Shown here one piece after another: positions 34,260 to 64,000 of a DNA stretch of 64,000 nt. The stretch spans positions 320,001-384,000 of the forward strand of contig CAWGLD010000007.1 of assembly GCA_963823335.1 (NCBI GenBank), written 5' to 3'. The notes below the pieces were generated by a model. The model had not been told where the DNA came from. It saw only the letters and a list, made by a program, of their open reading frames with translations, and searched no databases. The stretch's first letter is position 1; each line of letters starts with the position of its first letter. Both the position numbers and the translations under genes were made by a program. Source of the DNA: an uncultured delta proteobacterium (GTDB taxonomy: Bacteria; Desulfobacterota; Desulfobacteria; Desulfobacterales; B30-G6).

Positions 34260-34263
34260 GTAT

Positions 34264-48605: not shown

Positions 48606-50081
48606 TCACGCCTCCATATGCTCATTCTTCAACGTTTCCAATGCCCTTTCTCGTATCTGATCCAGGGATTGCTGAACATCGGCAGGCAATTTCAGCGGCC
48701 GGTGGTTTTCGAGAATGTCCATGGCCTTACTGACCGCTTTTTGGCCCCATGTTTTTTGCCCCTGGGCCATCCAGGGTTCAAGGGTTTCACGGTTGCAGAG
48801 CTGGGGTTGCCAATGTTCCTGTTTAAAATATTTCATGGTCTGTTCGGTTGAAATAAAGGCGCCCTGGGGACCCACCTGGCGGATCACATCCATGCCGATA
48901 TGCTCCGGGTCGATGTCAAAACCGCGAATAACACGCCTCACGTAGCTGATGATCTCCGCATTCATTACAAGTGCCGCCGGAGACCCCACCAGGCCCTGTC
49001 CCAGATATCCAATGTCATGAATCAGATTGGCACCGTCCAGTCCGGCCATGAGTAAAGAGATAGACCATTCCATGCCGGCCTGCTCATCAGGCACGTGTGC
49101 GTCGCTGACCCCGGCTGTTCCCCACATGGGAATGCCGTAATAATGATACAGATCCGCGCAGGCCGACAGAGCCAGCCTGTATTCCGGACAACCATATACA
49201 CATGCAGATGTCTTCATATCCAGGGTGGACATACCGAACCCGGAAATGATCGGCGCACCTTTGGCCCTTAACTGATGAAGGACGATGCCACTCAAGGCTT
49301 CGGCATTTCCAACGGTAATGGCACCGGCCAGGGTCACCGGTGCGCTGGCCCCGGACATCATACCGGGTGTATAGTTTACCGGGACCGCATTGTCGGCACA
49401 AAAAAAGAGTTTTTTGATGGCCCCCGATGAGTGCATCAACGGCGTCAGTGGCTCAGCATAATGGATATGAATCGGCTTTTCCCTCAAGACATCTTTTCCG
49501 CCAACGACAGCCGCAGCCATCTCATTGATGATGGCGATGTCTTTGGTTCCGGCCGCAGTAAAAAAAATGGGCTTTATGGCGTTTTCCAACTGGGTCTTGA
49601 AGGAATCGATGTACATCAGGTTGGTGGGTGAGTCATATGGCAGGGCATAGGATCCCAAAAAATCGATCTCTTCGAGGGAATCGGCTATCCTGGCGGCATT
49701 TGCCACATCCGCCAGTCTCGACTCTCTCAACACGCCGGACACCAGGTCATAGGTTTTGATCAAATCCGTCCCCATACCGAAATAGGATTTATTGCCTTCC
49801 AGGAGCATGGCCTCCTGACCTAAGCGGTTATAGATGGTGATCCGTGAAGGCGCACTGCGGATGCAGTCTTCAACCAGCCAGTTGGGAATCTGGACGATGT
49901 TGTCTGGTTTTATCCGGCAACCGGCATGGGCCATCATATCCAGGGCCTCCGGATGCATCACCTTGACACCCACCGTTTCCAGGAGTTCCAGGGTGGCACA
50001 ATGAATATGTTCGATCTGATCCCGGGTCAGCACCCGATAGACCGGCAGACATTGTGATTTAAAGCCTGTGTTCATTACCAT
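48606..50081 (-). CDS. Trimethylamine methyltransferase (MttB) superfamily protein, non-pyrrolysine
   Basis: IH..TLELLETVG, GASAPVTLAG...NAE.LSG, SDA.VPDEQAG.E, GANLIHD.G. No in-frame amber. Confidence 0.9.
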   Translation of the reverse strand: MVMNTGFKSQCLPVYRVLTRDQIEHIHCATLELLETVGVKVMHPEALDMMAHAGCRIKPDNIVQIPNWLVEDCIRSAPSRITIYNRLGQEAMLLEGNKSYFGMGTDLIKTYDLVSGVLRESRLADVANAARIADSLEEIDFLGSYALPYDSPTNLMYIDSFKTQLENAIKPIFFTAAGTKDIAIINEMAAAVVGGKDVLREKPIHIHYAEPLTPLMHSSGAIKKLFFCADNAVPVNYTPGMMSGASAPVTLAGAITVGNAEALSGIVLHQLRAKGAPIISGFGMSTLDMKTSACVYGCPEYRLALSACADLYHYYGIPMWGTAGVSDAHVPDEQAGMEWSISLLMAGLDGANLIHDIGYLGQGLVGSPAALVMNAEIISYVRRVIRGFDIDPEHIGMDVIRQVGPQGAFISTEQTMKYFKQEHWQPQLCNRETLEPWMAQGQKTWGQKAVSKAMDILENHRPLKLPADVQQSLDQIRERALETLKNEHMEA

Positions 50082-50156
50082 CTGTTTCTCCTCCCAACAT
50101 CCGTTTCACCCTCGACAGAGCGAAATGGGTGATCCTATGGCGATTTGCCATGTTGT

Positions 50157-52307
50157 TTATGCAAATTTAGGGTTCATCCGTTTGCATGCCCCGCACACAT
50201 GTATTGTTTCCGGCGCAACCCCATATGGTTTGACCTGTTTTTCCATATACGAAATGTATCTGCCTGCTCCCAGTTCTTTGCCGCATCCATGACAGTATAC
50301 CAGGATATCCCTGCAGAGGGTGATACCGCAAAGCCTGAGAACACACTGACCGTTTTCATGGGTCATGGTCATGGCGCCGGTGGGGCAGCTGTTGACACAA
50401 GCACCGCACAGGATGCACCTTCCGGCGGTTAACTCGAAATCGGTCGGCCCCGGAGCCTGGTGATCAAAATAACCGAGACCCAGTGCTTGAAAACCCAATT
50501 TTTCATGACATGCGTCCACGCATCTGCCGCACTGAATGCACACATCGCACCTGAGGCACCGTAAAGCCTCTGTCCTGGCTGCCTGCGGTGCAAGCGTCAA
50601 TTCCACCTGTTCGAAAGTCTTTTTCCTTTTCTCTATATCAAGCAGGGGCAACGATGGTCTGGTTAGCGTTGTTTTCTGAGATGCCGTTGTTTCAAGAAAA
50701 GCTGTCTGTGTCCTGCGGGCCGAAAGATATCGTGTTTTCAGCAAAGGCTGTCCCTGGAAGTATCGATGGACGTTCTCCGCCGCTAGTTTTCCAGCCGCAA
50801 TGGCCTCGATAATGGTGGCCGGACCTGTAACCAAATCGCCGCCTGCAAAAACACCTTTTGCTCCTGTCTGCCCCGTCAAAGGATCCGCGACGATGGTGTT
50901 GTGTTCCGTCCACGTCAGACCATTAAAGGCCGAAAGCCCTTCCCGGTCAGACCACTGCCCTATGGCATGAAGAACAGCATCGGTCTTGAGCTCATGCATG
51001 CTCCCCTGGATGGGGATGGGTCTTTTTCTGCCGTTTTCATCGGCCTCCCCGAGCCTGGCGTCCACACAACAAATACCGGACACCTTGCTCTGGGACCCCG
51101 ATATCTCCACAGGAATCTTCAAAAAGGACACCCGGACACCCTCCTGCTCCGCCTGGATGACATCCTCCTTCAGGGCCGGCATTTCACTCCGGGTCCGTCG
51201 GTACAGAACCGTAACATCGCTGCTACCCAAACGCAGTGCCGTTCGGGCGGCATCCAGCGCGACATTACCTCCCCCCACAACTGCCACACGAGAACCAATG
51301 GAAGGTGCATGCCCCAGACCGGCCTGATGTAAATACGTAATGGCATCCATGACCGGTGAAAAATCATTTTCACCTTTTATACCCATTCGCAGCCCTTTGT
51401 GGGCTCCCGTTGCAACATAGAAGGATTCAAACCCTTCCTGTCGCAACGCTTCAACCGTTATGTCCTTTCCCATACGCGTGTTGAAACGAAAGACAACACC
51501 CAGTTCTTGAATCAAAGAAATCTCTCTTTCGAGAACGGACAGGGGCAGCCGGTATCTTGGGATGCCAACACGCATCATCCCGCCGGCCCACGGCAGAGAT
51601 TCGATGACGGTTACACCATAGCCCTTGAGGGATAAATAGTAGGCCGCGCTGAGTCCGGATGGTCCGGCACCCACAATACAGACTTTGTGACCGTTGTCCT
51701 GTGCCCTGGCAGGGTTTTTAAAGCCATCACCCTCAAGGACAATTTTGGATGAAAAGGCTTTGAGGGCCTTGATGGCAACAGGTGTGTCGATGTTTTTCCT
51801 CAGGCAGGCTGTTTCACACGGATGTGTACAGGTCAGGCCGCACACCCATGGGAAAGGGTTGGCTTCCCGAATCAGCGCTATTGCTTCATGATCTCTACCC
51901 TGCCCGATCAAGGTCACGTAGCTTGCCACATCGATACCGGCTGGGCAGGCACATTGACACGCTGCCGGTGACAAAATTTCGCAATCACCCGTCAGACAGA
52001 CATGATCCCTCATATGGGTCTCAAAACAGACACCTTCTGAAAACAGTACCGCTGCAATGGTTTTGCCCAAGAATGCGACCATTTCATTTTGTGAGGATTC
52101 AAGATATTTCCCCAGAGATTCGACCCTGGACAGGTCTTGGGGAAGTGCTTTTCCAAGAGAGATTTTTTCCAGGCTGGCACACAGCGATAAAAGCGCTTTT
52201 ATTAAATGAGGGGCGAGTTGTTTCTGTGATAAACAGGTGCAATCCGAGAGTAGTCGGAACACCGGGCATGAAGGACGTTTTCCTTTCTCAACACTTGTAA
52301 CTTTCAT
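50157..52307 (-). CDS. NAD(P)H-dependent FAD/Fe-S oxidoreductase (GltD/NfnB-like with degenerate NuoF tail and C-terminal ferredoxin)
   Basis: CQCACPAG, CGLTC..PCE..C, VGAGPSG, VGGGNVA.D, RR, FAGGD, CLRC, CIQCGRC, CILCGACVNSCP. Confidence 0.88.
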   Translation of the reverse strand: MKVTSVEKGKRPSCPVFRLLSDCTCLSQKQLAPHLIKALLSLCASLEKISLGKALPQDLSRVESLGKYLESSQNEMVAFLGKTIAAVLFSEGVCFETHMRDHVCLTGDCEILSPAACQCACPAGIDVASYVTLIGQGRDHEAIALIREANPFPWVCGLTCTHPCETACLRKNIDTPVAIKALKAFSSKIVLEGDGFKNPARAQDNGHKVCIVGAGPSGLSAAYYLSLKGYGVTVIESLPWAGGMMRVGIPRYRLPLSVLEREISLIQELGVVFRFNTRMGKDITVEALRQEGFESFYVATGAHKGLRMGIKGENDFSPVMDAITYLHQAGLGHAPSIGSRVAVVGGGNVALDAARTALRLGSSDVTVLYRRTRSEMPALKEDVIQAEQEGVRVSFLKIPVEISGSQSKVSGICCVDARLGEADENGRKRPIPIQGSMHELKTDAVLHAIGQWSDREGLSAFNGLTWTEHNTIVADPLTGQTGAKGVFAGGDLVTGPATIIEAIAAGKLAAENVHRYFQGQPLLKTRYLSARRTQTAFLETTASQKTTLTRPSLPLLDIEKRKKTFEQVELTLAPQAARTEALRCLRCDVCIQCGRCVDACHEKLGFQALGLGYFDHQAPGPTDFELTAGRCILCGACVNSCPTGAMTMTHENGQCVLRLCGITLCRDILVYCHGCGKELGAGRYISYMEKQVKPYGVAPETIHVCGACKRMNPKFA

Positions 52308-52422
52308 ACCTGCACCATATATATACGCTCTATTTAAACCAGGGGTCGCGGAGTTTTTCCACCAAACCTTTCGTTGGAGCGGGAGGGGTGATCAGCAGCG
52401 AAAGCGGCACTGTCTGAATGTA

Positions 52423-53493
52423 TTAGGCTCTATCCAGATTTTCCTCTATATTCTCGAAATCAAAGCCTTCAGGATACTTGGAATAATACTCATGGTACCA
52501 TTCCCTTGCCTCATAAGCCTGGATCAGATGTTCCGCCGGAACACCGAATGGGAGATCTCAGCCGGGGGCAAATGTGAACCCCTGGGTACCGCCTGCCGCA
52601 AGACTGATCAGGGCATCTTCTCTGGGTGACAGAAGTCCCAGGCCGAGGGCAAGGGTCAACTTCAGATTTCCACCAAACCCTTTACCGTATTTTCTTGCGA
52701 TATCACGGACAAAATTCAGGTTCATCTGTTCATCGATGGCAAATCCGTGGGTACCGACCTTGCAGACATCTTCAATGACCTTTGTGCAGTCACCACAGAT
52801 GAAGAAGCTGGAAGTCTTGCCGGCATCATGTATGGCTGTTACGGCTTCCTGGCAGTTGGGTGTCACATATTCCTGAAAAGTCTCAGGTCGAATCTGCGAC
52901 GCTACCGGATCCACGATAGCGATGATATCACACCCCATTTGCGTATAAAACCGGGCAGACTCGGCACAGAGTTTACCGGCATAGGCTATAATGGCATGAG
53001 CGAAATCCTTCTTTTTTTTCAATGCCGTAAAAATACGCACACCGGCCAGATGAGAAGCCAGGGTCAGGGGTCCGGTCACCAGGCCGAGCATGGCGCAGTC
53101 CATTTCGTCGAGTTGCGGTTTGACCTTGGCTGCCGCCTGGAAAATGATCGGCCACCTTCCGGATGTTTTTGTAAACACCCCCAGCCCGAGTTCTTCGGGT
53201 GTCAACTTTTCACAGGGATGGGTCTTCACCGAAGGCACATTGTCTTCCCAGTATTCCAGTTCACAACCAATGGATTCCGCTTCCAGGGAGAGATCGAACA
53301 AGAGGGGGATGCCATCCGCATGATAGGTTTTGGCGGCATGGACAACTCCCCGGGAAAGGATATCCGCATCCTTGAGATACCTGTCTGCTTTTTCATTGAT
53401 AAGATAGGCACAGTTGACACCGGCATACGGAACCCAGGGGGCCTTGTCCGTTTCTTTCCCCCGTGTGGCGTCGATGAGCATCTGTTTGGCCAT
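52423..53493 (-). CDS. MtaA/CmuA (UroD-family) methylcobamide methyltransferase, predicted selenoprotein (356 aa, Sec312)
   Basis: PWVPY.G, DL.LEAE..GC, GPLTLASHL, DPVASQI, GGNL. In-frame TGA (52558-52560) falls in APG*DLP where the family has Cys. Frame continues 44 aa to TAA at 52423. Confidence 0.82.
52522..52557 (-). promoter_or_regulatory. Putative bacterial SECIS element
   Basis: Immediately after UGA: GATCTCCCATTCGGTGTTCC-GGC-GGAACATCTGATC. Apical loop begins with G ~20 nt from the UGA. Confidence 0.65.
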
Positions 53494-53654
53494 GAAATGC
53501 CTCCTTTATGATTTTTTAATTACCTCAGGATTCCCAAAACCTCTTTTCTTCAATACTGCTCGGTGATATTCGATGGTAAGGCAAGCGTTGATCCTCTGAT
53601 TTTTAAGGTCAAGAAGGTCACTCGAACCCTCGACCCCTTGAATCCTTGAACCCT

Positions 53655-54404
53655 TTATTTTTCTCGTATAGATCTGAACTGGCAGTGTTTCATCGCGCAT
53701 TGCAGGCATTTACTGCCCACGGGCTTTTGCTGCGCCGAATCACTGTATATGACAAAACCGGATATGGATTTTGCCGGTTGCATGACAAACGCATCATTCA
53801 GGTGCACACCGGCTGTGTCTTGTCCCAACAGATCGAATATCAGGGTCTGGCTTTCCAGGGCCACGCCATTCAGACCCGGTCCCATCCGACATCCGGAAAA
53901 AAGACCCATCCGTTGTGCATGCATCTCAATCATGTCATTGCATATCAACCCCATGGCATCCAGCATGGCTGTGCCAACAGCATCCAGCAGCAGGGATTGG
54001 TATATGCTGTTGCGTTTTGCAAGATCCCGGCACATGGTCTCGAGGGCACTGCCCAGGCTGCCGACAAAAACAGCAACATACCGGGCATCACTCTCCCACC
54101 TGTCAGGAAGCATGTCAGCATATGCGCCCCTTGACAAAACGATTCCGTATACTTCTTCAATCATGTCCATCGGAATCGCTCGATAACAAATAACCGCCTG
54201 TATCATCCCGACAGTCTGCCGGATGCCCTGGCATACCTGTTGACGTGTCTCCGGGGTCATGGGATAGTCCGGCCCCCCGAAGTAGCGGGCAACAGCCTCT
54301 GGTGACGGCCTGACATCTTCCGGGTCGACGTCAATTCTCACCGTCGATGAATCACCTGCCCCGAATATATCGGCAGTTATGAGTTTTTTCGGTTTGACAG
54401 TCAT
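53655..54404 (-). CDS. Stand-alone cobalamin-dependent methionine synthase activation-domain protein
   Basis: F.GSLG..LE, LLDAVGTA, R.GPG, Q..IFDLL, GV.L...VMQPAKSISG, C-terminal CLQC...C.FR. Confidence 0.85.
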   Translation of the reverse strand: MTVKPKKLITADIFGAGDSSTVRIDVDPEDVRPSPEAVARYFGGPDYPMTPETRQQVCQGIRQTVGMIQAVICYRAIPMDMIEEVYGIVLSRGAYADMLPDRWESDARYVAVFVGSLGSALETMCRDLAKRNSIYQSLLLDAVGTAMLDAMGLICNDMIEMHAQRMGLFSGCRMGPGLNGVALESQTLIFDLLGQDTAGVHLNDAFVMQPAKSISGFVIYSDSAQQKPVGSKCLQCAMKHCQFRSIREK

Positions 54405-54521
54405 TCCATAAAAAACCGTTTTACGGTCACCACAGGAGTGTTCAACGACCGAAACACGAAAGATCCGACCATGCTTGAGAAAGGTCGTAATTTGGCTTTA
54501 AAAAAGCGGCGCAGCCGCGTC

Positions 54522-54548
54522 AAATAAAATCGCCCGGCGATTTTATTT
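54522..54548. terminator. Intrinsic terminator-like hairpin after the mtmB-like gene
   Basis: AAATAAAATCGC-CCG-GCGATTTTATTT 12-bp perfect stem abutting the stop codon. Confidence 0.55.
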
Positions 54549-55930
54549 TAGTAGGGAAACTCAATTCCCATGTCTGCGATTTCATCTTTGATTCTGCGGT
54601 ACATATCGTAATGTTCCTGGGTCGGCACCGCTTTGGCGACATCGTAGCATTCATGGTACTCACTCCCGATGGGCGCATCTGCGGCATGGTCCTCGTATTT
54701 TGCCAGCAATTTCTTGGCAATCGCATTGACTTCGGCCCGGGACAAGCCCTGGCACGCGACAGCATGGCCCACTTCCATGCCGATTCTGGCTTCCAGCGGT
54801 GTTGCACGATTCTTGTATTTGTTGCGGGTCGAAGCCATCTCCCACAGGTGCCATCCAGTGACCGTCGAGACCATGGCGTGAACCGCGGTTTCCCGAAACA
54901 GCATCTCCGTCATGGGACCGGCATTGGCGAATCCATTGGAAGTATGCAGCAGTTTACTGTTTCTGGCCAGCGCCTGCCCTGCCATGGCGATGGCCCACAG
55001 CAACTCCCGGGTGGTGTTGGAACCGTAATTCAAATGAAATGGAAAGTGCTGATTGAAAACAGCACCGTGAATCACCAGACCGATAAGACTGTAGGCGACC
55101 GTGGTCACCGCCGTTCCCTCTGAGCCGCCGCACCATCCACCGTAAATCGCCCCGGTCAGGTTCCCGGTATAGCAGCCATACTGGGCATAATGAAGGGAGC
55201 GATTGAGAAGTGTGTCGGCGGTCTTGAACTCGGTCAGGGACCCTACAAGCCGTGCATCTGATTTTTGAACGCCCCACTCCTGGTTTGATACGGCGATTTG
55301 ACCGCTGTCGTGCTCCGCGGTCCCCACGGCAACCATAAATGTTCCCGGCCGTCCCAGCAGTCTTGCCGCCAGCTTCTGATTGGTGATGTGCTGGATACAG
55401 CCGCTGATTTCAGAGGGACCCGAAGATTCGATCAGATGACCAAAGGTCTCTTCCAGGATCGGCCCGCAAATGCCGTCCAGAAGTGGTTCCTTGAGATAGG
55501 CCATGCACATGGACTGGTGGTACTGCTCGTCACAGGTGATGTCCGGGCTCATGATACAGAATGGGGGGGCCGTGTCTTCCACCTGCCGGTGTTTCCACAG
55601 GACAGCGTCTTTTCCGGCACCCACCCAATATTGATCATGGGCCATATACAGCGCTTCCCGAATCTCTTCATCGGTGACCTGGATCAGCCGGTGGGAATCG
55701 GTATTGTAATACCCCACATCCCGGAACAGCTCCCAGGCAGCCTGCCAGATTCTGTCAGCCATGGCATCGTCTGTGGGGCACGGGTTTTCCGGGTCATATT
55801 TTATTTCATATTTTTTGATAAGTTTTTTCAGGGTCGGTGTAAAGTGCTTGGGAAGAAAATCATCCTCCTCCATAAAAGGACCGGTCTGGGATCGTTCGAG
55901 AATCTCCCAGTGCCTGTAGGCTGTTGTCAT
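54548..55930 (-). CDS. Monomethylamine methyltransferase (MtmB) family protein, non-pyrrolysine
   Basis: 460 aa. TGP.M.E.DF, DD.MAD..WQA, GRPG, IYGG.CGG.EG.A, AGP.TEM, P.EAR, P.G..Y.ECYD. No amber. Confidence 0.88.
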   Translation of the reverse strand: MTTAYRHWEILERSQTGPFMEEDDFLPKHFTPTLKKLIKKYEIKYDPENPCPTDDAMADRIWQAAWELFRDVGYYNTDSHRLIQVTDEEIREALYMAHDQYWVGAGKDAVLWKHRQVEDTAPPFCIMSPDITCDEQYHQSMCMAYLKEPLLDGICGPILEETFGHLIESSGPSEISGCIQHITNQKLAARLLGRPGTFMVAVGTAEHDSGQIAVSNQEWGVQKSDARLVGSLTEFKTADTLLNRSLHYAQYGCYTGNLTGAIYGGWCGGSEGTAVTTVAYSLIGLVIHGAVFNQHFPFHLNYGSNTTRELLWAIAMAGQALARNSKLLHTSNGFANAGPMTEMLFRETAVHAMVSTVTGWHLWEMASTRNKYKNRATPLEARIGMEVGHAVACQGLSRAEVNAIAKKLLAKYEDHAADAPIGSEYHECYDVAKAVPTQEHYDMYRRIKDEIADMGIEFPY

Positions 55931-56170: not shown

Positions 56171-56205
56171 TCCTGGAACCCTTGAATCCTTGAACTTTGA
56201 TCATC

Positions 56206-56841
56206 TCATTTTGAGATGATCAAGTTTGCTAAAAGTTCAGGCGCACTCTTGGCGTCCTTACAGTAAAGGTCGGCACCGATCTGGTCGGCCCAAAGCTGGG
56301 AAGTGGGCGCACCACCGATAACAACCTTATATTGATCCCTTATCCCTTTTGAATTTAAAATCTCTATGATTTCTTTCTGACGTGGCATGGTGGTGGTCAT
56401 CAGCGATGAAGCGCCGATGAAATCAGCACCCATGGCCTCGGCCTCCTTGATAAAGGTCAGCGGATCCACGTTGTATCCCAGATCCTTCACCACGAAACCA
56501 TTGGTTTCCAGGATGAGCTTGACGATATTTTTGCCGATTTCATGCAGGTCCCCTTTGACCACGCCGATCACGATCTTGCCTTTGACTTCCTGTCCGCCGA
56601 CCTCGTCCAGATAGGGCGCCATTACCTCGACCACAGCGGACAAGGCCTCTCCGGCCAGCATGATCTCGGGAAGGAAAATTTCCAGTTTTGAAAACAGGTC
56701 CCCCACATGTGCCATGGTCCTGGTCATGGCCGCTATCATTTCCAGAGGGTTTGCACCGTCCTTGAGAAGCCTTTCGGCAAGCTCCCGGGCCTCCTCTGCT
56801 TCACCGTCTTCCACAAATTTGCTCAATTCCTCCAACGACAT
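56206..56841 (-). CDS. Corrinoid (cobalamin-binding) protein, MtmC/MttC family
   Basis: VG.LF...EIFLPE, GDLHEIGKN (DxHxxG), SSLMTTT, IGGAP. RBS AAGGAGG before ATG 56841. Confidence 0.93.
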   Translation of the reverse strand: MSLEELSKFVEDGEAEEARELAERLLKDGANPLEMIAAMTRTMAHVGDLFSKLEIFLPEIMLAGEALSAVVEVMAPYLDEVGGQEVKGKIVIGVVKGDLHEIGKNIVKLILETNGFVVKDLGYNVDPLTFIKEAEAMGADFIGASSLMTTTMPRQKEIIEILNSKGIRDQYKVVIGGAPTSQLWADQIGADLYCKDAKSAPELLANLIISK

Positions 56842-57047
56842 GTCAGGCCTCCTTGCTATCAGCTCTTTTAGGATAATAATATAGATTGTTATAATAACGC
56901 ATTTCACCTTGCCCTGAAGCAAGATGTTGCCGTAAAAAATCAGAAATTCCGGAGAACTAGATGAACATCGAATCCCGTCACGGCGGGAAACGTTCAGCAT
57001 CCAACGTCGAATACGACAGGTCTCCGCATTTTGTACGGCTTCCTAAG

Positions 57048-57061
57048 GTTGTATATACAAC
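57048..57061. promoter_or_regulatory. HutC-type operator upstream of the corrinoid methyltransferase operon
   Basis: Perfect palindrome GTTGTATATACAAC. Confidence 0.75.
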
Positions 57062-57120
57062 TTCTGTGTCTATAAAATAGGATTTTGCTTTTTGTCAAGG
57101 CATAACATGGCACTACGATG

Positions 57121-57867
57121 TTATGGGGTCATGTTTTCCTGTTTAAAGAAATCGGCTGGGTCGAACTGGGGCGAGAAGGTATCCCGGAAAGCCATCTCAC
57201 CGCGCATGTAATACTCCACATAGGTAACCGGATCGTCAAATGAATAGATCGTCCGCTTGATATGGAACACAGGATAACCCGGTTTTACACCAAAGATGGG
57301 GGCGGTCTCTTCTGAAAGAACGATCGCCTCCATACTCTGGCTGATCCTGGTAAGCTGCAGTTTGTATTTATTGATCAGAATGCTGTGAATGGATTCGTTT
57401 TTGAGATCCTCCCAGAGAATACCGGCACAGATATCAGGCCGTAGGTACCGTATTTCGTAACGCACCGGCTTTTGATCGAAATACCACAGACGGCTGATAA
57501 GAATCAACTGCTCCCCGGTTTCCAGCTGTTTTGAAACATCGGCCGGAGGGTCTACCACCTGTGCCTTTTGAACATCCGTTGTCAGAACCACGTTCAGATC
57601 GTCAGCCCACTTCTGAAACGGTCTGACCCGGAAAAATCCGGTGGTGTAATGCTTCTTCTTCACGAAGGTACCCTTGCCCGGCACGCGCTCAACAAACCCT
57701 TCCCTCTCTATGGCATCGATGGCTTTTCTGGCCGTCATGCGGCTGACACCAAAGGTTTCCGCCAGCCTGTTTTCCGAAGGCACAACATCCAAAAAATTTC
57801 GTGCCTTGATGCCTTTGATGACATACTCCTTTATCTTTTCGTATTTCGGAATCTTTTTTTGCATCAT
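57121..57867 (-). CDS. hutC: GntR/UTRA family regulator, HutC-like
   Basis: PKYEKIK, PSE..LA..FGVSRMTARKA, PGKGTFV, UTRA domain, divergent from hutU. Confidence 0.82.
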   Translation of the reverse strand: MMQKKIPKYEKIKEYVIKGIKARNFLDVVPSENRLAETFGVSRMTARKAIDAIEREGFVERVPGKGTFVKKKHYTTGFFRVRPFQKWADDLNVVLTTDVQKAQVVDPPADVSKQLETGEQLILISRLWYFDQKPVRYEIRYLRPDICAGILWEDLKNESIHSILINKYKLQLTRISQSMEAIVLSEETAPIFGVKPGYPVFHIKRTIYSFDDPVTYVEYYMRGEMAFRDTFSPQFDPADFFKQENMTP

Positions 57868-57895
57868 ACATCCCCGTTTCACGGTCTGAAAACCC

Positions 57896-57905
57896 TGTAT
57901 ATACA
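57896..57905. promoter_or_regulatory. HutC-type operator upstream of hutC
   Basis: TGTATATACA. Confidence 0.7.
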
Positions 57906-57995
57906 TCTGGCACACTATAGCCCCACCCGTTTGGATTGTCGAGAGCAAATTCCGCTTGACAAGTCCGGGAACGATGGTCATAACTACTCTTTGAT

Positions 57996-58005
57996 TGTAT
58001 ATACA
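57996..58005. promoter_or_regulatory. HutC-type operator upstream of hutU
   Basis: TGTATATACA, downstream of TTGACA at ~57956. Confidence 0.75.
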
Positions 58006-58062
58006 GGTCTGGCTCGTCTCCGCCTGGCTTTATAGAACCTTTCAGGGTGCAAAGGAGGTCCC

Positions 58063-60096
58063 GTGACAACCCATCCCCTTGCTGGTGATACCATGATGAT
58101 CGAACCGGACCAAAATCTCCCCGAACTGCCTGAGTTTGAAAGAGATATTCGCCGGGCCCCGGACCGCGGCTTTCGTCTGACACCCCAACAGGCTGAAATA
58201 TCGCTGAAAAATGCCCTGCGCTATATTCCCGTAAAATGGCACGAAACCCTGGCATCCGAATTTCTGAATGAGTTGATGACACGTGGGAGGATCTATGGTT
58301 ACCGGTATAGACCCGCAGGGCCCATCAAGGCCAGGCCGGTTCATTCCTACACAGGCAGATGTCTTGCCGGAAAAGCCTTCCAGGTGATGATCGACAACAA
58401 CCTTGATTTTGACGTCGCCCTCTATCCTTATGAACTGGTGACCTATGGAGAAACCGGGTCTGTCTGCCAGAACTGGATGCAGTATCGCCTGATAAAAAAA
58501 TATCTGGAAGTACTCACCGAGGACCAGACTCTGGTGGTGGCATCCGGTCATCCCCTGGGGCTTTTTCAATCAAGACCGACCAACCCCCGGGTCATCATTA
58601 CCAACGGATTGATGGTTGGCAGATATGACAACCTGGATGATTGGGAAATTGCCGCCCAGATGGGAGTGGCAAGTTACGGCCAGATGACGGCTGGAGGATG
58701 GATGTATATCGGTCCCCAGGGTATTGTGCATGGGACCTACAATACACTCCTGAACGCAGGTAGAATAAGATTCGGTCTGAGCAAGGAAGCCAATCTTGCC
58801 GGACGACTGTTTGTCTCTTCAGGCCTGGGGGGCATGAGCGGCGCTCAACCAAAAGCCGCAGAGATCGCCGGAGCCGTATCCATTATCGCCGAGGTTGATG
58901 GCTCCAGGATACTGACCCGGCACCAGCAGGGCTGGGTAAAACATGTCTCTGACGATCTGGAAGAAACCTTTGCCCTGGCGGCTCAGGCCACTCAGAAGGG
59001 GGAACCGCTCTCCATCGCTTTTGCCGGGAACATCGTCGATCTGCTGGAGTACGCGGTGGACCACAACATAAAAATCGACCTGCTTTCGGATCAGACGTCA
59101 TGCCATGTGGCCTATACCGGCGGGTACTGCCCCCAGGGCATCACCTTTGAAGAAAGAACCCGGCTCCTGGCAGAAAACAGAGGGACATTCTGTAAGCTTG
59201 TGGATAAAAGCCTCCGTCGCCACTTTGAATTGATCAAGATTCTCACGTCCAGGGGTGTCTATTTTTTTGATTACGGCAATGCGTTTCTAAAAGCGGTTTT
59301 CGACGCAGGCGTAACCGAAATTTCCAACAATGGCCTCGACGAAAAGGACGGGTTCATCTTTCCATCCTACTTTGAGGACATCATGGGACCCCATATTTTT
59401 GATTTCGGATACGGCCCGTTCCGCTGGGTCTGTTTGAGCGGTGATCATAATGACCTGGTAAAGACCGACAAGGCAGCCATGGACTGCATCGATCCCCTTC
59501 GCAGGTATCAGGACAGGGACAACTGGACCTGGATCAGGGATGCGGAAAAGTACCATCTCGTAGTGGGAACCCAGGCCAGGATCCTGTATCAGGACGCGGA
59601 AGGCAGAATCAGGATCGCACTGAAATTCAACGAGATGGTAAGAAAGGGAGACGTGGGCCCCATAATGATCGGCCGGGATCACCACGATCCCGGCGGGACG
59701 GATTCACCCTTCCGGGAAACAGCCAATATAAATGATGGCAGCAATGTGATGGCCGACATGGCCACCCACTGTTTTGGTGGAAACTGCGCCAGGGGTATGT
59801 CCATGGTCGCTCTGCACAACGGTGGCGGGACAGGGATAGGAAATGCCATAAACGGCGGGTTTGGCCTGGTGCTGGACGGCAGTCAGAGAGTGGACGACAC
59901 CATCCGGTCCGCTATTTCCTGGGATGTCATGGGCGGTGTGGCCAGACGGAACTGGGCCCGCAATACCAATGCCATGGAGGTCTGCCGAACCTTCAATGAG
60001 GCGAACAAGGGTGTGGGTCATGTCACCATTCCCTATCTGCCGGAAGAAAGCCTGGTTAAGGATATCGTGTCCAACGCTTTTAAGAAAAGGTCCTGA
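58063..60096 (+). CDS. hutU: Urocanate hydratase (long form)
   Basis: MIDNNLD..VA.YPYELVTYG, YGQMTAGGWMYIGPQGIVHGT, GLGGMSGAQ, SDQTSCH, GRDHHD, HNGGG. RBS AAGGAGG. Confidence 0.95.
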   Translation: MTTHPLAGDTMMIEPDQNLPELPEFERDIRRAPDRGFRLTPQQAEISLKNALRYIPVKWHETLASEFLNELMTRGRIYGYRYRPAGPIKARPVHSYTGRCLAGKAFQVMIDNNLDFDVALYPYELVTYGETGSVCQNWMQYRLIKKYLEVLTEDQTLVVASGHPLGLFQSRPTNPRVIITNGLMVGRYDNLDDWEIAAQMGVASYGQMTAGGWMYIGPQGIVHGTYNTLLNAGRIRFGLSKEANLAGRLFVSSGLGGMSGAQPKAAEIAGAVSIIAEVDGSRILTRHQQGWVKHVSDDLEETFALAAQATQKGEPLSIAFAGNIVDLLEYAVDHNIKIDLLSDQTSCHVAYTGGYCPQGITFEERTRLLAENRGTFCKLVDKSLRRHFELIKILTSRGVYFFDYGNAFLKAVFDAGVTEISNNGLDEKDGFIFPSYFEDIMGPHIFDFGYGPFRWVCLSGDHNDLVKTDKAAMDCIDPLRRYQDRDNWTWIRDAEKYHLVVGTQARILYQDAEGRIRIALKFNEMVRKGDVGPIMIGRDHHDPGGTDSPFRETANINDGSNVMADMATHCFGGNCARGMSMVALHNGGGTGIGNAINGGFGLVLDGSQRVDDTIRSAISWDVMGGVARRNWARNTNAMEVCRTFNEANKGVGHVTIPYLPEESLVKDIVSNAFKKRS

Positions 60097-60097
60097 A

Positions 60098-61663
60098 ATG
60101 CAATCCATTGTTATCGACAAGGAAAATTTGACCATTGAGGATGTGGTGGCCATCGCCCGAAAAGGTGTGCGGGTCGATGCCTCCAGCCAGGGCGTGCTGC
60201 GGGTCGAAAAAGCCCGTGAGCTGATCGCCAAATGGGTCAGTGAAAAAAAAGTGATCTATGGAATCACCACCGGGTTTGGCGCCTTGTGCAATGTTCCCAT
60301 TTCGGAATCCGACACCCGGTTGCTGCAGAATAAAATCATCATGAGCCACGCCTCGGGCGTGGGGTCACCCCTTCCCGAAGATGTTGTTCGGGCTGTAATG
60401 GCCGTCCGGCTGCATGACCTGTTCATGGGATACTCCGGCTGTTCAATCACGACCCTGCGGTACTTGATGGCCTTTCTCAACCAGGGGCTGACACCGGTCG
60501 TGCCTGAAAAGGGATCGGTGGGATCCAGCGGAGACCTGGCACCCATGGCTCACCTGGGTCTGGTTCTGTTAGGAAAAGGCGAGGCTTTTTATAAGGGCGA
60601 ACGCCTCAGCGGTGCCAGGGCACTGGAAAAGATCGGACTTTCCCCCATCAGCCTTGCAGCCGGGGAAGGTCTGGCCCTTATCAACGGTACCCAGGTAATG
60701 ACCGGCATCGCCACCCTGGTGGTTCACGATGCCATCCGCCTGGCAAAAATGGCTGACATCGCCTGCGCCATGAGCCTGGAAGTGCTCATGGGAAGCAATT
60801 CTGAATTCGACCCGCGAATTCATCAGATACGACCTCATCCGGGGCAGATTGCGTCAGCCGAAAATATGCTGCGACTGACCAGTGAAAGTGAAATCATTCT
60901 CTCCCACGAAGGATGCGCCCGTGTTCAGGATGCCTATACCCTGCGATGTTCGCCCCAGATTCACGGTGCCAGTAAGGATGCCGTCGTACATGCTCAAAAT
61001 GTTGTGAAGATTGAAATCAATGCATCCACCACCAACCCGTTGATCTTCACCGACACCCAGGAGATCCGCCTGGGAGGAAATTTTCACGGCCAGCCCATCG
61101 CCATGGCAGCCGATTACCTCTCCATGGGGATTGCCGAATTAGGGAATGTGTCCGAACGTCGCATCGAAAGGCTGGTCAACCCGCAATTGAGCGAACTGCC
61201 CGCCTTTCTGGTAAAAAACGGCGGACTCAATTCAGGATTCATGATAGCCCAGTACACGGCCGCCGCCCTGGTTTCCGAAAACAAAGTGCTGGCACATCCA
61301 GCTTGTGTGGACTCGATTCCCACTTCTGCGAACAAGGAAGACCATGTCAGCATGGGCACCATCGCTATTCGACAGTGCCGGGAAATTCTGGATAATGTAG
61401 AGCATGTTCTTGCCGTGGAGATGCTGTGCGCTGCTCAGGCCTATGATCTCCTGAATGAAAAGAACAAAATGATGGGAGGCAGGGGCACTCGGGTAGCCCA
61501 CCAGGTAATTCGAGAAACAATTTCCTATCTTGAAGAAGACCGGGAGCTGTTCATAGATATCGAAAAGATGGTGGCCCTGATCCGCTCAGGTAAAATAATA
61601 CACGCAGTGGAAAAGGCTGTGGGTAAGCTCGATCTGGTCAGCTTTGATAAACAGAGCTGCTGA
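60098..61663 (+). CDS. hutH: Histidine ammonia-lyase
   Basis: YGITTGFG, SHASG, GSVGSSGDLAP (MIO-forming tripeptide SSG), LINGTQ, QDAYTLRC, GGNFHG, EDHVSMG. Confidence 0.92.
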   Translation: MQSIVIDKENLTIEDVVAIARKGVRVDASSQGVLRVEKARELIAKWVSEKKVIYGITTGFGALCNVPISESDTRLLQNKIIMSHASGVGSPLPEDVVRAVMAVRLHDLFMGYSGCSITTLRYLMAFLNQGLTPVVPEKGSVGSSGDLAPMAHLGLVLLGKGEAFYKGERLSGARALEKIGLSPISLAAGEGLALINGTQVMTGIATLVVHDAIRLAKMADIACAMSLEVLMGSNSEFDPRIHQIRPHPGQIASAENMLRLTSESEIILSHEGCARVQDAYTLRCSPQIHGASKDAVVHAQNVVKIEINASTTNPLIFTDTQEIRLGGNFHGQPIAMAADYLSMGIAELGNVSERRIERLVNPQLSELPAFLVKNGGLNSGFMIAQYTAAALVSENKVLAHPACVDSIPTSANKEDHVSMGTIAIRQCREILDNVEHVLAVEMLCAAQAYDLLNEKNKMMGGRGTRVAHQVIRETISYLEEDRELFIDIEKMVALIRSGKIIHAVEKAVGKLDLVSFDKQSC

Positions 61664-61749
61664 AAAGTATAGTCTTGTGTATTGATAGCCGTTAGATTAT
61701 AGCGCTTTCTTTAAATCCGAATGTTCAAATGACAATAGAAGAGTGCTGA

Positions 61750-62241
61750 ATGAATGTTGTATTTGTTGAACTTGATCGGTGCATTGCCTGCTTGAGTTGT
61801 GAAAAGGCATGTCTGTTTCAACAGGCAGCCAGAAACACAGAGGCAAGCCCGAATATCTTTGTTCGCGTGGACCTGGACCGACGCCGGATTTATGCCGGCA
61901 CATGCCTGCAGTGTGAAACCGCTCTCTGCCTGGAAGTATGCCCGATCAAAGCCATAACACGAGATCCGGAAACGTCGGCCGTTATCGTCGATCAGAAGAT
62001 TTGTCTCGGGTGTGGTATGTGCGTATCGGCCTGCCCTTTTGGATACATGTACCTGGAAGACTCCTGCCAAAAGGCAACCAAATGCGACCTGTGCGGCGGT
62101 ACGCCGAAGTGCGTTCAGATGTGCATGGCCAGGGCCTTACATTTCGGCAGCATCAATTCTCTTGCCGAACGCAAACGTAAACAGACCGATTTGCGCCTGA
62201 GTCTTAGGGCCGTCCCAATCCATACGGGTGAAGAAAAATGA
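61750..62241 (+). CDS. 4Fe-4S dicluster electron-transfer subunit (DmsB/HydN-like)
   Basis: CIACLSCEKAC, CLQC...CLEVCP, CLGCGMCVSACP, KCDLC...CV..C. Confidence 0.9.
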   Translation: MNVVFVELDRCIACLSCEKACLFQQAARNTEASPNIFVRVDLDRRRIYAGTCLQCETALCLEVCPIKAITRDPETSAVIVDQKICLGCGMCVSACPFGYMYLEDSCQKATKCDLCGGTPKCVQMCMARALHFGSINSLAERKRKQTDLRLSLRAVPIHTGEEK

Positions 62242-64000
62242 CGGGCAGGACCTTTGTTGAAAACGCGGTCGTAAAAACCCTGTGCCGCATGTGCAGCAAC
62301 CGCTGCAGCATCGATGTACACGTCCAGGATGGCCGTATGGTTGAAATCACACCCGGGCAGGGAAACCCCTGCAACCAGGGCAGGATGTGCCCCCGGGGAG
62401 GTGCTGCGCTGGATATGTTTTATCACCCCGACCGTATCCGCACACCCTTGAAGAGACTTGACGACGGCTCATTTGTGAAAATCAGCCGCGAAACAGCCAT
62501 TGCTGAAATTGCCGAGAAGATGATGCAGATTAAGCATCGCTATGGTGCCCGGTCCATGGGGGTATGGAAAGGCGAGGCGATCGGTTTCCTTCAGCAGGAG
62601 GAGTATGCCCGCAGGTTTGCCCACGCATTCGGCACACCCAATTATTTTTCCAACGATTCTGCCTGTTACAATGGCCGATTTCTGGGGCACATGCTGGTAA
62701 ACGGTTTCTGGAATCCCTTTTCCTACTATGCCAAGGCGGACCTGATTCTGATTTTCGGCACCAACCCACCTGTGTGCCACCCGCCTTTCATGGCCGAATT
62801 TGCCGATGCCAAGGCAAACGGTGCCAATCTGGTGGTGATCGATCCGAGACTGAATCCCATTGCCTGCTACGCCGATGTTTTTGCCCAGCCCCTGCCGGGC
62901 ACCGATGGTGCCATAGCCTGGGGTCTGATTCGTTATATTGTCAAGGCCGGTGAATATGATCACGAGCTGATGGATCGCTACAGCATCGGATTTGAGGAAG
63001 TAGTCGCCTACGCGGAAAAATTCAGCCCTGATTATGTCGAAGAACAAACCGGTGTCTATGCCGATGTTGTGGTCAAAATCGCTCAACTGATTGTTGAGAA
63101 CCGTCCCAAGATCAGTTTTTATATGGGTGCCGGTCTGGAGCACCACGACAACGGCGTCGACAACATCCGTGCCCTGGTGATCCTGTCCTGCATTACGGGT
63201 GCCTTTGATATGGATTGCGGGCTTTACTGGCCCGACGACATGCCCAGGAACGCCTTGACTCTGTATGACGAACTGCCTCTGGAAAAGGAAAAACCCATCG
63301 GTGCCGACCGCTTCCCGGTGCTTTACGAGCTTCGCAAGGAGTGCCATTCCATGACCGCCATGGATTATATGCTCGGCAAGGGCGAGTATCCGTTGAAGGG
63401 ACTCATCGTCACCGCCGCCAATCCAGCCGTCACCAATCCCAACACCCGCAAGGTGGAAGCGGCCCTGGGATCTCTGGACCTCCTGGTGGTCAATGACCTG
63501 TTTCTGACGAAGACCGCCCGGCTGGCACATTATATCCTGCCCGCCGCCTCCTTTTTGGAACGTTCCGAAATCCACATCGACCCTAAATATCAACGTGTCT
63601 ATCTCACCAGCAAGGTGGCGGAAATTCCGGGAATAAAAGACGAATACATGCTCTGGCACGACCTGGCCCATGTCCTGGGCTTTGGTGAGCGCTACTTCCC
63701 GTGGGAAAACGAGACCCAGGTCAACCAGTTTATACTGGAGCCTTCCAATATCCGGCTCGAACAGCTGCAGGCCCATCCGGAAGGGATTCAGTATAAACCA
63801 CTGACGTTCCAGAAACATCTCTCGCGACCCCTGCCGACAGCCTCAGGAAAAATCGAACTGGCTTCCTCTTACTTAAAAAAGCTCGGTTTTTCAGCAATCC
63901 CCGAATACGTGCCGCCCTATCACCTGCGCGAGAAGTCAGAGGACTACCCTTTCATTCTCACCACAGGTGCACGCAAGACCCTGTTGTATCACTCCAGACA
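62238..64000 (+). CDS. Mo/W-bisPGD (DMSO reductase family) oxidoreductase, no Tat signal; 3' end beyond window
   Basis: Manual translation from ATG 62238 (ATGA overlap): KTLCRMCSNRC...MCPRG, HPDRIRTPLKR, NDSACY, GTNP, VIDPR, PGTDGA, DLFLTKTA..A.YILPAAS.LER, PTASGKIEL, ILTTGAR. Absent from the ORF track. Confidence 0.92.
   Translation, partial: MTGRTFVENAVVKTLCRMCSNRCSIDVHVQDGRMVEITPGQGNPCNQGRMCPRGGAALDMFYHPDRIRTPLKRLDDGSFVKISRETAIAEIAEKMMQIKHRYGARSMGVWKGEAIGFLQQEEYARRFAHAFGTPNYFSNDSACYNGRFLGHMLVNGFWNPFSYYAKADLILIFGTNPPVCHPPFMAEFADAKANGANLVVIDPRLNPIACYADVFAQPLPGTDGAIAWGLIRYIVKAGEYDHELMDRYSIGFEEVVAYAEKFSPDYVEEQTGVYADVVVKIAQLIVENRPKISFYMGAGLEHHDNGVDNIRALVILSCITGAFDMDCGLYWPDDMPRNALTLYDELPLEKEKPIGADRFPVLYELRKECHSMTAMDYMLGKGEYPLKGLIVTAANPAVTNPNTRKVEAALGSLDLLVVNDLFLTKTARLAHYILPAASFLERSEIHIDPKYQRVYLTSKVAEIPGIKDEYMLWHDLAHVLGFGERYFPWENETQVNQFILEPSNIRLEQLQAHPEGIQYKPLTFQKHLSRPLPTASGKIELASSYLKKLGFSAIPEYVPPYHLREKSEDYPFILTTGARKTLLYHSR

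Follow-up and report, generated by a model that had tools for sequence, protein, structure and literature searches.

Histidine utilization genes beside a pyrrolysine-free corrinoid methyltransferase cluster in an uncultured Desulfobacterales bacterium: a candidate catabolic system for methylated histidine derivatives

Which substrate would call for histidine utilization (hut) genes, corrinoid-dependent methyltransferases and a molybdenum- or tungsten-dependent (Mo/W) enzyme at one locus? This question is raised by a stretch of 64,000 nucleotides, hereafter the window, from the genome of an uncultured delta proteobacterium of the Desulfobacterales, a marine bacterium of the sulfate-reducer type (assembly GCA_963823335.1; G000:C7:320001-384000 in our numbering, where G000 is the host genome of 4.37 Mb). 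Genes were called by Pfam and NCBIfam profile searches, with the curated cut-offs of NCBIfam, and all genes named in an initial annotation of the stretch were present (Table 1). A catabolic island spans about 40 kb of contig C7 (approximately 366-406 kb), and the locus makes up one end of it. We favour, with a probability of about one half, the reading that its genes serve the catabolism of a histidine derivative that is methylated and cationic and that the cell takes up from marine or estuarine sediment. We base it on the co-orientation and close spacing of the hut genes with those of the Mo/W enzyme and its partners, on a shared and conserved promoter box, on the recurrence of hut genes beside the methyltransferase module in several gene orders, on an MttB-family neighbour at all three hut clusters of the host, on a transporter of the cluster that has moved into a hut operon, and on a Spirochaete alternative route that could also take histidine.

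On the plus strand, hutU1 and hutH1 are followed by genes for a poly-ferredoxin subunit (FeS) and for a bis-pyranopterin guanine dinucleotide (bis-PGD) enzyme, bisPGD1; the gene of an AcsV-type corrinoid activase (acsV) lies just past the window. All five are co-oriented, with gaps of 1 nt (hutU1-hutH1) and 86 nt (hutH1-FeS) and overlaps of 4 nt each, where FeS runs into the start of bisPGD1 and bisPGD1 into acsV. No terminator-like site was listed on the plus strand between hutH1 and FeS. From the co-orientation, the close spacing, the overlaps and this absence, the histidine genes, the Mo/W enzyme and the corrinoid activase look like one operon.

HutU1 scored above the cut-off for urocanate hydratase and far below those for thiourocanate hydratases (S-methyl-thiourocanate, 343.9 against 880 bits; thiourocanate, 304.6 against 930). 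It is 71-72% identical to the only hutU product of four relatives, whose gene heads a canonical hutU-hutI-ftcD-fchA operon. HutH1 scored above the histidine ammonia-lyase cut-off and has the triad SSG (ASG in three orthologues), from which formation of the 4-methylideneimidazole-5-one (MIO) cofactor is predicted. MIO lyases require a free alpha-amine on the substrate, and HutH1, with its MIO-type triad kept, would therefore need one. It also keeps a Ser-His pair at what we take to be the substrate-selectivity site of histidine ammonia-lyase. We considered HutH1 as a trimethylammonia-lyase that acts on hercynine and supplies trimethylamine to MttB; the MIO-type triad and the high hutH equivalog score led us to reject this. 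Such lyases are not known to contain MIO.

The methyltransferase genes lie on the minus strand, divergent from hutU1, with the gene for a GntR/UTRA regulator between them. According to the initial annotation, the same palindrome precedes hutU, the regulator gene and the corrinoid-protein gene. The window indeed has exactly three exact copies of TGTATATACA, one at each of these places (operators 1 to 3 in Table 1). With up to one mismatch there were seven matches, a number that none of 100 shuffled sequences reached, and the whole genome has four exact copies. The experimentally defined operator consensus of HutC is TGTA-N2-TACA (PMC12977541); operator 3 and the cluster box both fit this HutC (Phut) consensus. 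The regulator has a GntR helix-turn-helix, a UTRA effector domain and TGTA-N2-TACA-type boxes in its own and flanking promoters, which places it in the HutC subfamily. The initial annotation had called it HutC. This name is too specific: the regulator scored 120.5 bits on the HutC equivalog model TIGR02018, with a cut-off of 220 (103-116 for the regulators of relatives), and by this score is a paralogue within the subfamily, not a HutC equivalog. No protein of the host genome exceeded the TIGR02018 cut-off, and the cluster regulator was the best HutC-like match. The fourth genomic copy of the box (L089:9349, that is G000:C6:71348) lies upstream of an unrelated operon for a transketolase-like protein, a second UTRA-GntR regulator, a transaldolase, an alanine dehydrogenase, two aminotransferases and an alanine racemase. 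Because this operon has its own UTRA regulator, the 10-mer is common to at least two HutC-subfamily regulators and represents a core of the subfamily.

We then compared related loci. One genome per species was scanned, which gave 80 loci encoding the MtmB-like protein of the cluster at 71-97% identity; a flank of up to 10 kb was covered per locus, 39 of the 80 loci were 15 kb or longer (long loci), and the loci were searched with the window proteins. Their hosts belong to Desulfobacterales, Desulfobulbaceae, Spirochaetota and a few further lineages; among them are Desulfocicer vacuolatum DSM 3385 (L016) and the Olavius Delta 1 symbiont. Exact copies of the box numbered 57 in the 1.17 Mb of related loci, where about one was expected; 53 of them stood within 400 bp upstream of a cluster gene, namely the gene for the corrinoid protein, the regulator, MttB1 or FeS, or hutU, hutH or hutI. 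Upstream of the corrinoid-protein gene alone there were 23 sites. Orthologues of the regulator (52-91% identity) were found in 30 of the 80 loci. Four Desulfobulbaceae-type relatives (G001-G004) have a hut operon that encodes a true HutC (270-282 bits); their hut-operon boxes read TTGTATATACAA and their cluster boxes CTGTATATACAG. We tried these flanks (T..A for hut, C..G for the cluster) as a discriminator, found that they separate only the Desulfobulbaceae-type genomes and are mixed elsewhere, and dropped them. Joint control of the hut and methyltransferase genes by the paralogue is a well-founded prediction where both flank its gene, as here and in about ten relatives.

The MtmB-like gene adjoins that of the corrinoid protein in 72 of the 80 loci and in all 39 long loci, and these two proteins form, as judged from gene content, the invariant core of the system. 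Other members accompany the MtmB-like gene less regularly: an MttB paralogue in 39/80 loci (27/39 long loci), the URO-D-type methyltransferase in 38/80 (21/39), the bis-PGD enzyme in 31/80 (24/39), the MetH-activation protein in 31/80 (19/39; 32-77% identity), the HutC-like regulator in 30/80 (22/39), the ferredoxin in 29/80 (22/39), in each of which it accompanies bis-PGD, and AcsV in 14/80 (14/39). Within Desulfobacterota, no accessory of the methyltransferase module is more constant than the Mo/W enzyme, which the Spirochaete loci lack. An ABC transporter for polar amino acids stands inside the methyltransferase cluster in 25 of the 80 loci.

Any hut gene was found in 11 of the 80 loci (one of them a fragment) and in 9 of the 39 long loci. 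These loci have at least five arrangements: hutU-hutH-FeS-bisPGD(-acsV); hutI-fchA-hutH-FeS-bisPGD-acsV; hutH-FeS-bisPGD-acsV; hutI-hutH-gltD-FeS-bisPGD; and hutU alone with a hutI-like gene. The full order hutU-hutH-FeS-bisPGD-acsV is shared by L004 and L005, and as far as bisPGD by L007 and L069; L010 and L074 have variants. Hut genes lie 14 kb from the module in a twelfth genome. The last cluster gene of G002 is followed at 2.4 kb by the start of a complete hut operon, so that a flank of 10 kb undercounts the linkage. The coupling of MtmB/MttB with hutUH that the initial annotation put forward recurs in several gene orders with a conserved box, and hut genes are missing near most of the relatives' modules. 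Because of this recurrence and of the box in the cluster promoters, the view that the coupling is more than chance adjacency is supported by the comparison. In 11 of the 80 loci, mostly of Spirochaetota, other genes take the place of hut: the module lies among genes for a HisC-family aminotransferase and two indolepyruvate:ferredoxin oxidoreductases, with an ADP-forming acyl-CoA synthetase and a 2-hydroxyacid dehydrogenase alongside. hutH and hutU were absent from the one Spirochaete genome checked. Histidine could be acceptable both to Hut and to this aminotransferase/oxidoreductase route.

The initial annotation had also suggested a look beyond position 64000 for the rest of the pathway, and hutI, ftcD, fchA, a second hutH and hutU and a transporter were found there. 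A second set on the minus strand encodes an FCD-type GntR regulator, MttB2 (55% identical to MttB1), bisPGD2 (46% identical to bisPGD1), an FAD-linked oxidase and an unnamed protein, and divergent from it runs fchA-ftcD-hutI-hutH2-hutU2 on the plus strand. Directly after hutU2 come a third MttB paralogue gene (mttB3) and then a polar amino-acid ABC transporter. The latter is the orthologue of the in-cluster transporter of the relatives, with 57-73% identity and the same gene order. Its binding protein groups with binders of cationic amino acids and has PDB 9e2b as the nearest structure; for the ligand of 9e2b, the matches listed in a literature search included no related paper by title. A third hut cluster (L082, G000:C8:5826-18805) comprises genes for hutU3, a 342-aa protein, a PotABC-like ABC transporter, an M20 metallohydrolase, hutH3 and hutI3, and ends with an AtzE/GatA-type amidase, an MttB paralogue and a split MttB pseudogene. 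An MttB paralogue lies within 10 kb of all three hut clusters of the host, which has only 18 such paralogues over 4.37 Mb. The sequences of the other clusters have features of their own. HutH2 (L001:14835-16403) scored 546.8 bits against the hutH cut-off of 539.15 and has Ala-Asp where HutH1 and its orthologues have Ser-His; its substrate may differ from plain histidine. HutU3 scored 778 bits against the cut-off of 880 for S-methyl-thiourocanate hydratase, and 715 bits on the hutU model.

Table 1 Features of the studied locus, in window coordinates.
Feature	Position	Strand	Length and matches
MttB1, pyrrolysine-free MttB-superfamily corrinoid methyltransferase (MT1)	48606-50081	-	491 aa; PF06253 326.6 bits
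GltD-like NAD(P)H flavoprotein with extra 4Fe-4S domains	50157-52307	-	716 aa; Pyr_redox_2, Fer4_20, Fer4_7; PRK12771 501 bits
Selenocysteine-containing MtaA/CmuA (URO-D) methyltransferase	52423-53493	-	356 aa with U312; PF01208 132 bits
Stand-alone MetH activation (reactivation) domain protein	53655-54404	-	249 aa; PF02965 36.5 bits
Pyrrolysine-free MtmB-family methyltransferase	54548-55930	-	460 aa; PF05369 292 bits
Cognate corrinoid protein (CoP)	56206-57000	-	B12-binding and B12-binding_2; TIGR02370 180 bits
Operator 1 (predicted), TGTATATACA inside GTTGTATATACAAC	57050-57059		50 nt 5' of corrinoid-protein ATG
GntR/UTRA regulator, HutC subfamily	57121-57867	-	GntR and UTRA domains; TIGR02018 120.5 bits
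Operator 2 (predicted), TGTATATACA	57896-57905		29 nt 5' of regulator ATG
Operator 3 (predicted), TGTATATACA	57996-58005		67 nt 5' of hutU start
hutU1, urocanate hydratase, long form	58063-60096	+	677 aa; TIGR01228 434.9 bits, above cut-off 375
hutH1, histidine ammonia-lyase	60098-61663	+	521 aa; TIGR01225 667.4 bits, above cut-off 539
DmsB/PadI-like poly-ferredoxin (FeS) subunit	61750-62241	+	163 aa; Fer4_11 and related domains
bisPGD1, cytoplasmic Mo/W bis-PGD enzyme	62238-64000, then 298 nt past window	+	686 aa; Molybdop_Fe4S4, Molybdopterin domains

Both corrinoid methyltransferase (MT1) genes of the locus proved to be free of pyrrolysine (Pyl), as initially annotated: their frames are open and Val stands at the Pyl position of MtmB and of MttB. 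MttB1 aligned with PF06253 over residues 10-475 and belongs to the MttB superfamily; on the trimethylamine methyltransferase model TIGR02369 it scored 427.7 bits, below the cut-off of 525. Its Val aligned with the Pyl of 7xcl, and the gene has no in-frame TAG. The glycine-betaine-binding residues of MtgB are Y97, R312, H348 and F356 (PMC13080624). Aligned to 9yce and 2qne, with the offset of the MtgB numbering counted by hand, MttB1 has T for Y97, W for R312 and G for F356, and keeps H348. MttB1 orthologues in the related clusters are 70-94% identical. An Rfam scan of window positions 46000-64000 gave only a sub-threshold PYLIS_3 match inside the MttB1 gene (49010-49107, minus strand; 30.1 bits against a gathering threshold of 38, E = 0.007), which at these Pyl-region codons probably reflects coding homology to Pyl-type mttB, not a working element. 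On the opposite strand, MttB1 is adjoined by the gene of a B12-binding radical SAM protein (46697-48352, plus strand), which has the same place in L004 and L069 at 83% identity.

The MtmB-like protein matched Methanosarcina barkeri MtmB with 178 bits and has Val at Pyl202 (1l2q). Since it matches the family and yet has Val at this position, it is, on this alignment, a non-Pyl MtmB homologue and not a Pyl-type monomethylamine methyltransferase. Its gene is single-copy in the host genome; the orthogroup is tight (71-97% identity), and the nearest paralogues are only 35-38% identical. Between the MtmB-like and MetH-activation genes we observed a GC-rich hairpin followed by a T run (54506-54518, minus strand); transcript levels of the corrinoid-protein/MtmB-like pair may exceed those of the genes downstream. 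The intergenic region of the pair has a stretch of about 50 nt (around 56118-56172) whose summed depth is 10- to 50-fold above that of its surroundings in three of the four metatranscriptome contig sets (X9-X11, not X12); it has many loose ends into unlike sequence, no Rfam match, and looks like an element repeated in other contexts or organisms. The host genome also has a tRNA-Pyl (anticodon CTA; G000:C2:80111-80184), near which lie genes for a corrinoid protein (C2:80281-80955) and for a protein of the MttB family (C2:84127-85512). From this tRNA and its neighbours, the organism probably has a true Pyl-dependent trimethylamine system besides its many Pyl-free paralogues.

The second methyltransferase, of the URO-D type, was initially annotated as a selenocysteine (Sec) protein, and the comparison bears this out. 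Its gene has an in-frame TGA at 52558-52560, and read-through adds 44 in-frame codons. The same codon in 35 related loci is TGA in 33, with a conserved in-frame tail, and TGC in two, within the motif APG-U/C-D[ILM]P, and a tRNA-Sec is encoded at C6:16589-16686 of the host genome. A hairpin lies 12 nt 3' of the UGA, the usual distance of a selenocysteine insertion sequence, with a stability the same as that of shuffled sequence (z = -0.10). Because of the TGA/TGC conservation with a conserved tail, we regard the protein as a genuine selenoprotein, a call made on codon conservation. The Sec motif falls at what is presumably the zinc-ligand position of MtaA. The family is the thiol-methylating MtaA/CmuA type, not the pterin-binding type, and a CobW-type metallochaperone accompanies the Sec-type methyltransferase in relatives. 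The host has a second methyltransferase module at C5:239902-247267, with a corrinoid protein (33% identity), an AcsV paralogue (59%), a Sec-type URO-D paralogue (71%) and a CobW-like GTPase that is 52% identical to the cluster-associated GTPase of L010.

In the Mo/W enzyme bisPGD1, the cysteines of the N-terminal cluster are present and a signal peptide region is absent; its metal ligand is the Cys of the motif SACYNG. The nearest solved structures are FdhF of the hydrogen-dependent carbon dioxide reductase (HDCR; 212 bits) and acetylene hydratase (211), within a range of 189-212 that includes polysulfide/thiosulfate reductase. Formate dehydrogenase was rejected as its identity (TIGR01591, 316.4 against 666; Cys-Tyr where HDCR FdhF has Cys-His). 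Asp13 is the catalytic residue of acetylene hydratase. This identity was rejected as well, as bisPGD1 has the Cys ligand but, aligned to 2e7z, Ser in place of Asp13. Among its best 120 homologues (377-1201 aa), only generic names and no functional name were present, and no desulfurase-fused (MES-like) form was seen, in a ranking that favours orthologues. The GltD-like gene sits between FeS-bisPGD and hutH in L058, and in Desulfobulbaceae-type loci a PadH-like flavoprotein takes the GltD-like place directly before FeS-bisPGD. From this gene context, and with an AcsV-type activase encoded just past the window, the GltD-like flavoprotein more probably exchanges electrons with the Mo/W enzyme than activates the corrinoid protein. 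With a DmsB/PadI-like ferredoxin and a GltD-like or PadH-like flavoprotein as partners, gene content points to an NAD(P)(H)-linked redox turnover of the enzyme in the cytoplasm. The AcsV-type protein scored 460.1 bits on NF040756 (exception level 800) and 98.5 on TIGR04270 (cut-off 500), and by these scores appears to be a relative within the corrinoid-activase family, not an equivalog.

From these parts, the following route can be proposed for the methyl-histidine reading. The polar/cationic amino-acid ABC transporter, whose gene is present, would take up the presumed substrate. At least two Pyl-free MT1s (MttB1 with its paralogues, and the MtmB-like protein) would N-demethylate it and methylate the Co(I) corrinoid protein. 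The Sec-containing MtaA/CmuA-type enzyme would unload the methyl group, to a thiol or selenol as readily as on a route to tetrahydrofolate, and by homology the AcsV/RACE-type activase and the MetH-activation-domain protein would reactivate the corrinoid. The Cys-ligated bis-PGD enzyme would carry out a redox step via poly-ferredoxin and flavoprotein to NAD(P)H, one candidate reaction being that a thio-imidazole such as ergothioneine loses its sulfur reductively. Histidine would then be degraded by HutH1 and HutU1 and, from the operon next to theirs, by HutI, FtcD and FchA. Judged from where the TGTA-TA-TACA boxes lie and how well they are conserved, the HutC-subfamily repressor would jointly control the methyltransferase operon, its own gene and hutU-hutH-FeS-bisPGD-acsV. 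A more specific form of the route runs anaerobically from ergothioneine or hercynine to histidine without trimethylamine, under the HutC-derived repressor: the NAD(P)H-fed Mo/W enzyme would remove the thione sulfur, in reverse of the metallopterin step of MES, the Pyl-free MttB would take the first N-alpha methyl and the Pyl-free MtmB homologue the remaining ones, and the Sec methyltransferase would follow. We consider this particular version unlikely.

Two observations concern the ecological setting. Contigs of four estuary RNA libraries covered 29-30 of the 30 bins of window positions 46000-64000, including the neighbouring radical SAM gene; such contigs mark presence only, not co-regulation or expression level. 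On these metatranscriptome contigs, in which DNA carry-over is possible, the pathway is probably active in nature. At 29714-36926 (minus strand), 12 kb from the methyltransferase cluster, the window encodes a Dpp/Opp-type peptide ABC transporter (two ATPases, two permeases and SBP_bac_5), preceded by an S58 (DmpA/BapA-type) aminopeptidase. S58 enzymes can cleave N-terminal beta-amino acids, and the use of carnosine or anserine is a possibility. Opp-type transporters also flank the module in L039, L076, L079 and L080.

Several points weigh against a methylated histidine as the substrate. No substrate-specific sequence signature supports the model. MttB1 keeps one of the four betaine-binding residues of MtgB, the locus has two MT1 types for three N-alpha methyl groups, and no non-Pyl enzyme is known to be efficient at demethylating tertiary or secondary amines. 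With a second methyltransferase of thiol-methylating type, the route of the methyl group to C1 metabolism is uncertain. The Mo/W enzyme is a steadier partner of the module than hut (24/39 against 9/39 long loci), and with only a candidate reaction for it the model is one key step short. No hut gene was found within the flank of up to 10 kb in 69 of the 80 loci, and G001, G003 and G004 have their hut operon on a different contig or at a distance of 70-95 kb. The Desulfobulbaceae-type genomes have their own HutC and different box flanks, so joint control is predicted only where hut is linked. In the host, the 10-mer is a generic subfamily core whose fourth copy precedes an unrelated operon, hut clusters 2 and 3 have no box, either exact or with one mismatch, and a genome this rich in MttB makes some hut adjacency likely by chance. 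The Spirochaete route equally suits derivatives of Phe, Tyr or Trp.

Many of these points would be expected if the module degraded an amine unrelated to histidine, such as choline, tetramethylammonium, another amino-acid betaine or methylated Lys or Arg, with hut nearby through island clustering and a generic box. The loci without hut, the 18 MttB paralogues, the identical 10-mer at another UTRA regulator on contig C6 and the differing flanks of hut-promoter and cluster-promoter boxes in G001-G004 all agree with this, as does the resemblance of the transporter's binding protein to Lys/Arg binders, and the only characterised non-Pyl MtmB acts on tetramethylammonium and choline (PMC13044021). 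Island clustering fits poorly, however, with hutU-hutH that are co-oriented and tightly spaced or overlapping with FeS-bisPGD-acsV and have at least five independent arrangements in relatives, with the MttB neighbour at all three hut clusters, and with the cluster's ABC transporter in the hut2 operon of the host; an importer of the amino-acid type is ill-suited to choline or tetramethylammonium. As weak evidence, no archaeal (Methanococcoides) sequence is among the 80 relatives at 71% identity or more. An unrelated amine is, on balance, possible but doubtful.

The selenocysteine opens another path, on which the system would resemble the type 1 mlp clusters and deal mainly with methylated sulfur or selenium. 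Here the Sec URO-D enzyme would act on the substrate side, with S-methyl-ergothioneine, derivatives of selenoneine, methylated thiols or other S- or Se-methyl compounds as possible substrates; the Mo/W enzyme would either act as a sulfoxide or selenoxide reductase or break a C-S or C-Se bond, and hut would handle the imidazole skeleton. URO-D-type homologues that catalyse methylcobalamin:selenide transfer, in clusters tied to selenium metabolism, are described in PMC10418091. The conserved Sec at the presumed zinc-ligand motif of MtaA, the CobW-type metallochaperone with the methyltransferase in relatives and a Mo/W enzyme as close to polysulfide/thiosulfate reductase as to anything point the same way. 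The invariant or frequent core is nevertheless two MT1s of N-methyl type (MttB and MtmB families), with the URO-D protein in 38/80 loci, and the mlp paper mentions neither MttB, MtmB nor molybdopterin (PMC10418091); we hold this path to be decidedly unlikely. It is highly improbable that the Mo/W enzyme is a cytoplasmic N-oxide reductase, for trimethylamine N-oxide (TMAO) or an amino-acid N-oxide, with the MT1s demethylating the product amine and the histidine genes as bystanders. The bis-PGD enzymes do include TMAO and dimethyl sulfoxide reductases, to which bisPGD1 has partial matches, but those to the TorA and DmsA models are weak (58-168 bits against cut-offs of 778-1465). Demethylation of trimethylamine and monomethylamine is Pyl-dependent in all known enzymes, and the host has a separate tRNA-Pyl with MttB-family and corrinoid-protein genes nearby on C2. 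The amino-acid ABC transporter and the hut co-orientation would be left unexplained.

Compared with known systems, the locus is a variant of corrinoid quaternary-amine demethylation with three unusual parts: the methyltransferase with Sec, the new family of Mo/W enzymes, and hut genes that a HutC-derived repressor would control. The MttB-superfamily systems (MtgBCA for glycine betaine, MtpB, MtcB, MtyB, and MthB for phosphocholine) have the same layout of MT1, corrinoid protein and second methyltransferase plus activase, with a Pyl-free MttB. Bacterial betaine systems use a pterin-binding tetrahydrofolate methyltransferase as the second methyltransferase; the present one is of the Sec URO-D/MtaA type, and an extra MtmB-family MT1, the Mo/W enzyme and hut genes are added. 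Canonical Hut/HutC, with urocanate as inducer, shares with this locus hutH and hutU above equivalog cut-offs, a Phut-type box and a GntR regulator with UTRA. It differs in that our regulator falls below the HutC cut-off, the predicted regulon adds corrinoid methyltransferases, the Mo/W enzyme and the corrinoid activase, and hutI, ftcD and fchA are in a separate operon without a box.

Non-Pyl MttB members and the sole characterised non-Pyl MtmB (MtqB) are described as acting on quaternary amines (PMC13044021, PMC12155760, PMC13080624). MtqB/MtqC of Methanococcoides methylutens likewise pairs a Pyl-free MtmB-family MT1 with an adjacent corrinoid protein annotated as dimethylamine-type (PMC13044021); compared by description, our system is bacterial and has a context of amino-acid transport and histidine/arylpyruvate catabolism, not methanogenesis. 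Histidine betaine is reported to be used by marine anaerobes via a lyase (bioRxiv 10.1101/2025.08.13.670108). The trimethylammonia-lyase and urocanate reductase of Shewanella woodyi resemble the proposal as anaerobic marine chemistry from histidine betaine to urocanate. That route reportedly releases trimethylamine through the lyase and uses urocanate as electron acceptor, whereas the proposed one would strip the methyls singly without trimethylamine; no such lyase is evident here, and HutH1 keeps the MIO-type triad. A metallopterin module can exchange sulfur between ergothioneine and hercynine (PMC9516567): MES of Caldithrix abyssi has a Cys-ligated bis-PGD module related to acetylene hydratase, with an N-terminal 4Fe-4S cluster, that acts on histidine betaine. 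Likened by features, bisPGD1 shares the Cys ligand, the cluster and the score of 211 bits to acetylene hydratase; unlike MES, it has no fused cysteine desulfurase, and its ferredoxin and flavoprotein partners imply a net redox turnover. The type 1 mlp clusters of Kountz and Balskus also have URO-D-type coenzyme M-methyltransferase homologues, a corrinoid protein, an activase and a selenium link in anaerobic bacteria (PMC10418091). Here the selenium is inside the methyltransferase itself, and histidine occurs once in the mlp paper, in a figure-legend list of abbreviations. Full-text literature searches found no paper linking MttB with hercynine and, judged by titles and the start of abstracts, none describing ergothioneine breakdown via a corrinoid system. 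This agrees with the statement of the initial annotation, whose interpretation is partly supported overall, that no pathway of this gene set has been described.

If the favoured reading is correct, methylated histidines would be a new substrate class for the MttB and MtmB superfamilies, most members of which have no assigned function so far; for non-Pyl MtmB homologues, mostly without assigned function, this is also the account in PMC13044021. Two candidate enzymes come out of the locus: a corrinoid methyltransferase that contains Sec, and a Mo/W bis-PGD enzyme whose family has no name yet and is widespread in Desulfobacterota. Should the more specific ergothioneine/hercynine route be true, it would give the first bacterial role of a non-Pyl MtmB and the first Pyl-free corrinoid demethylation of secondary and tertiary amino-acid amines, with methyls leaving via the first known selenocysteine-containing corrinoid methyltransferase. 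Under the favoured reading, abundant sediment bacteria could use histidine betaines without releasing trimethylamine, which would matter for nitrogen and C1 cycling in the sea and for what becomes of ergothioneine.

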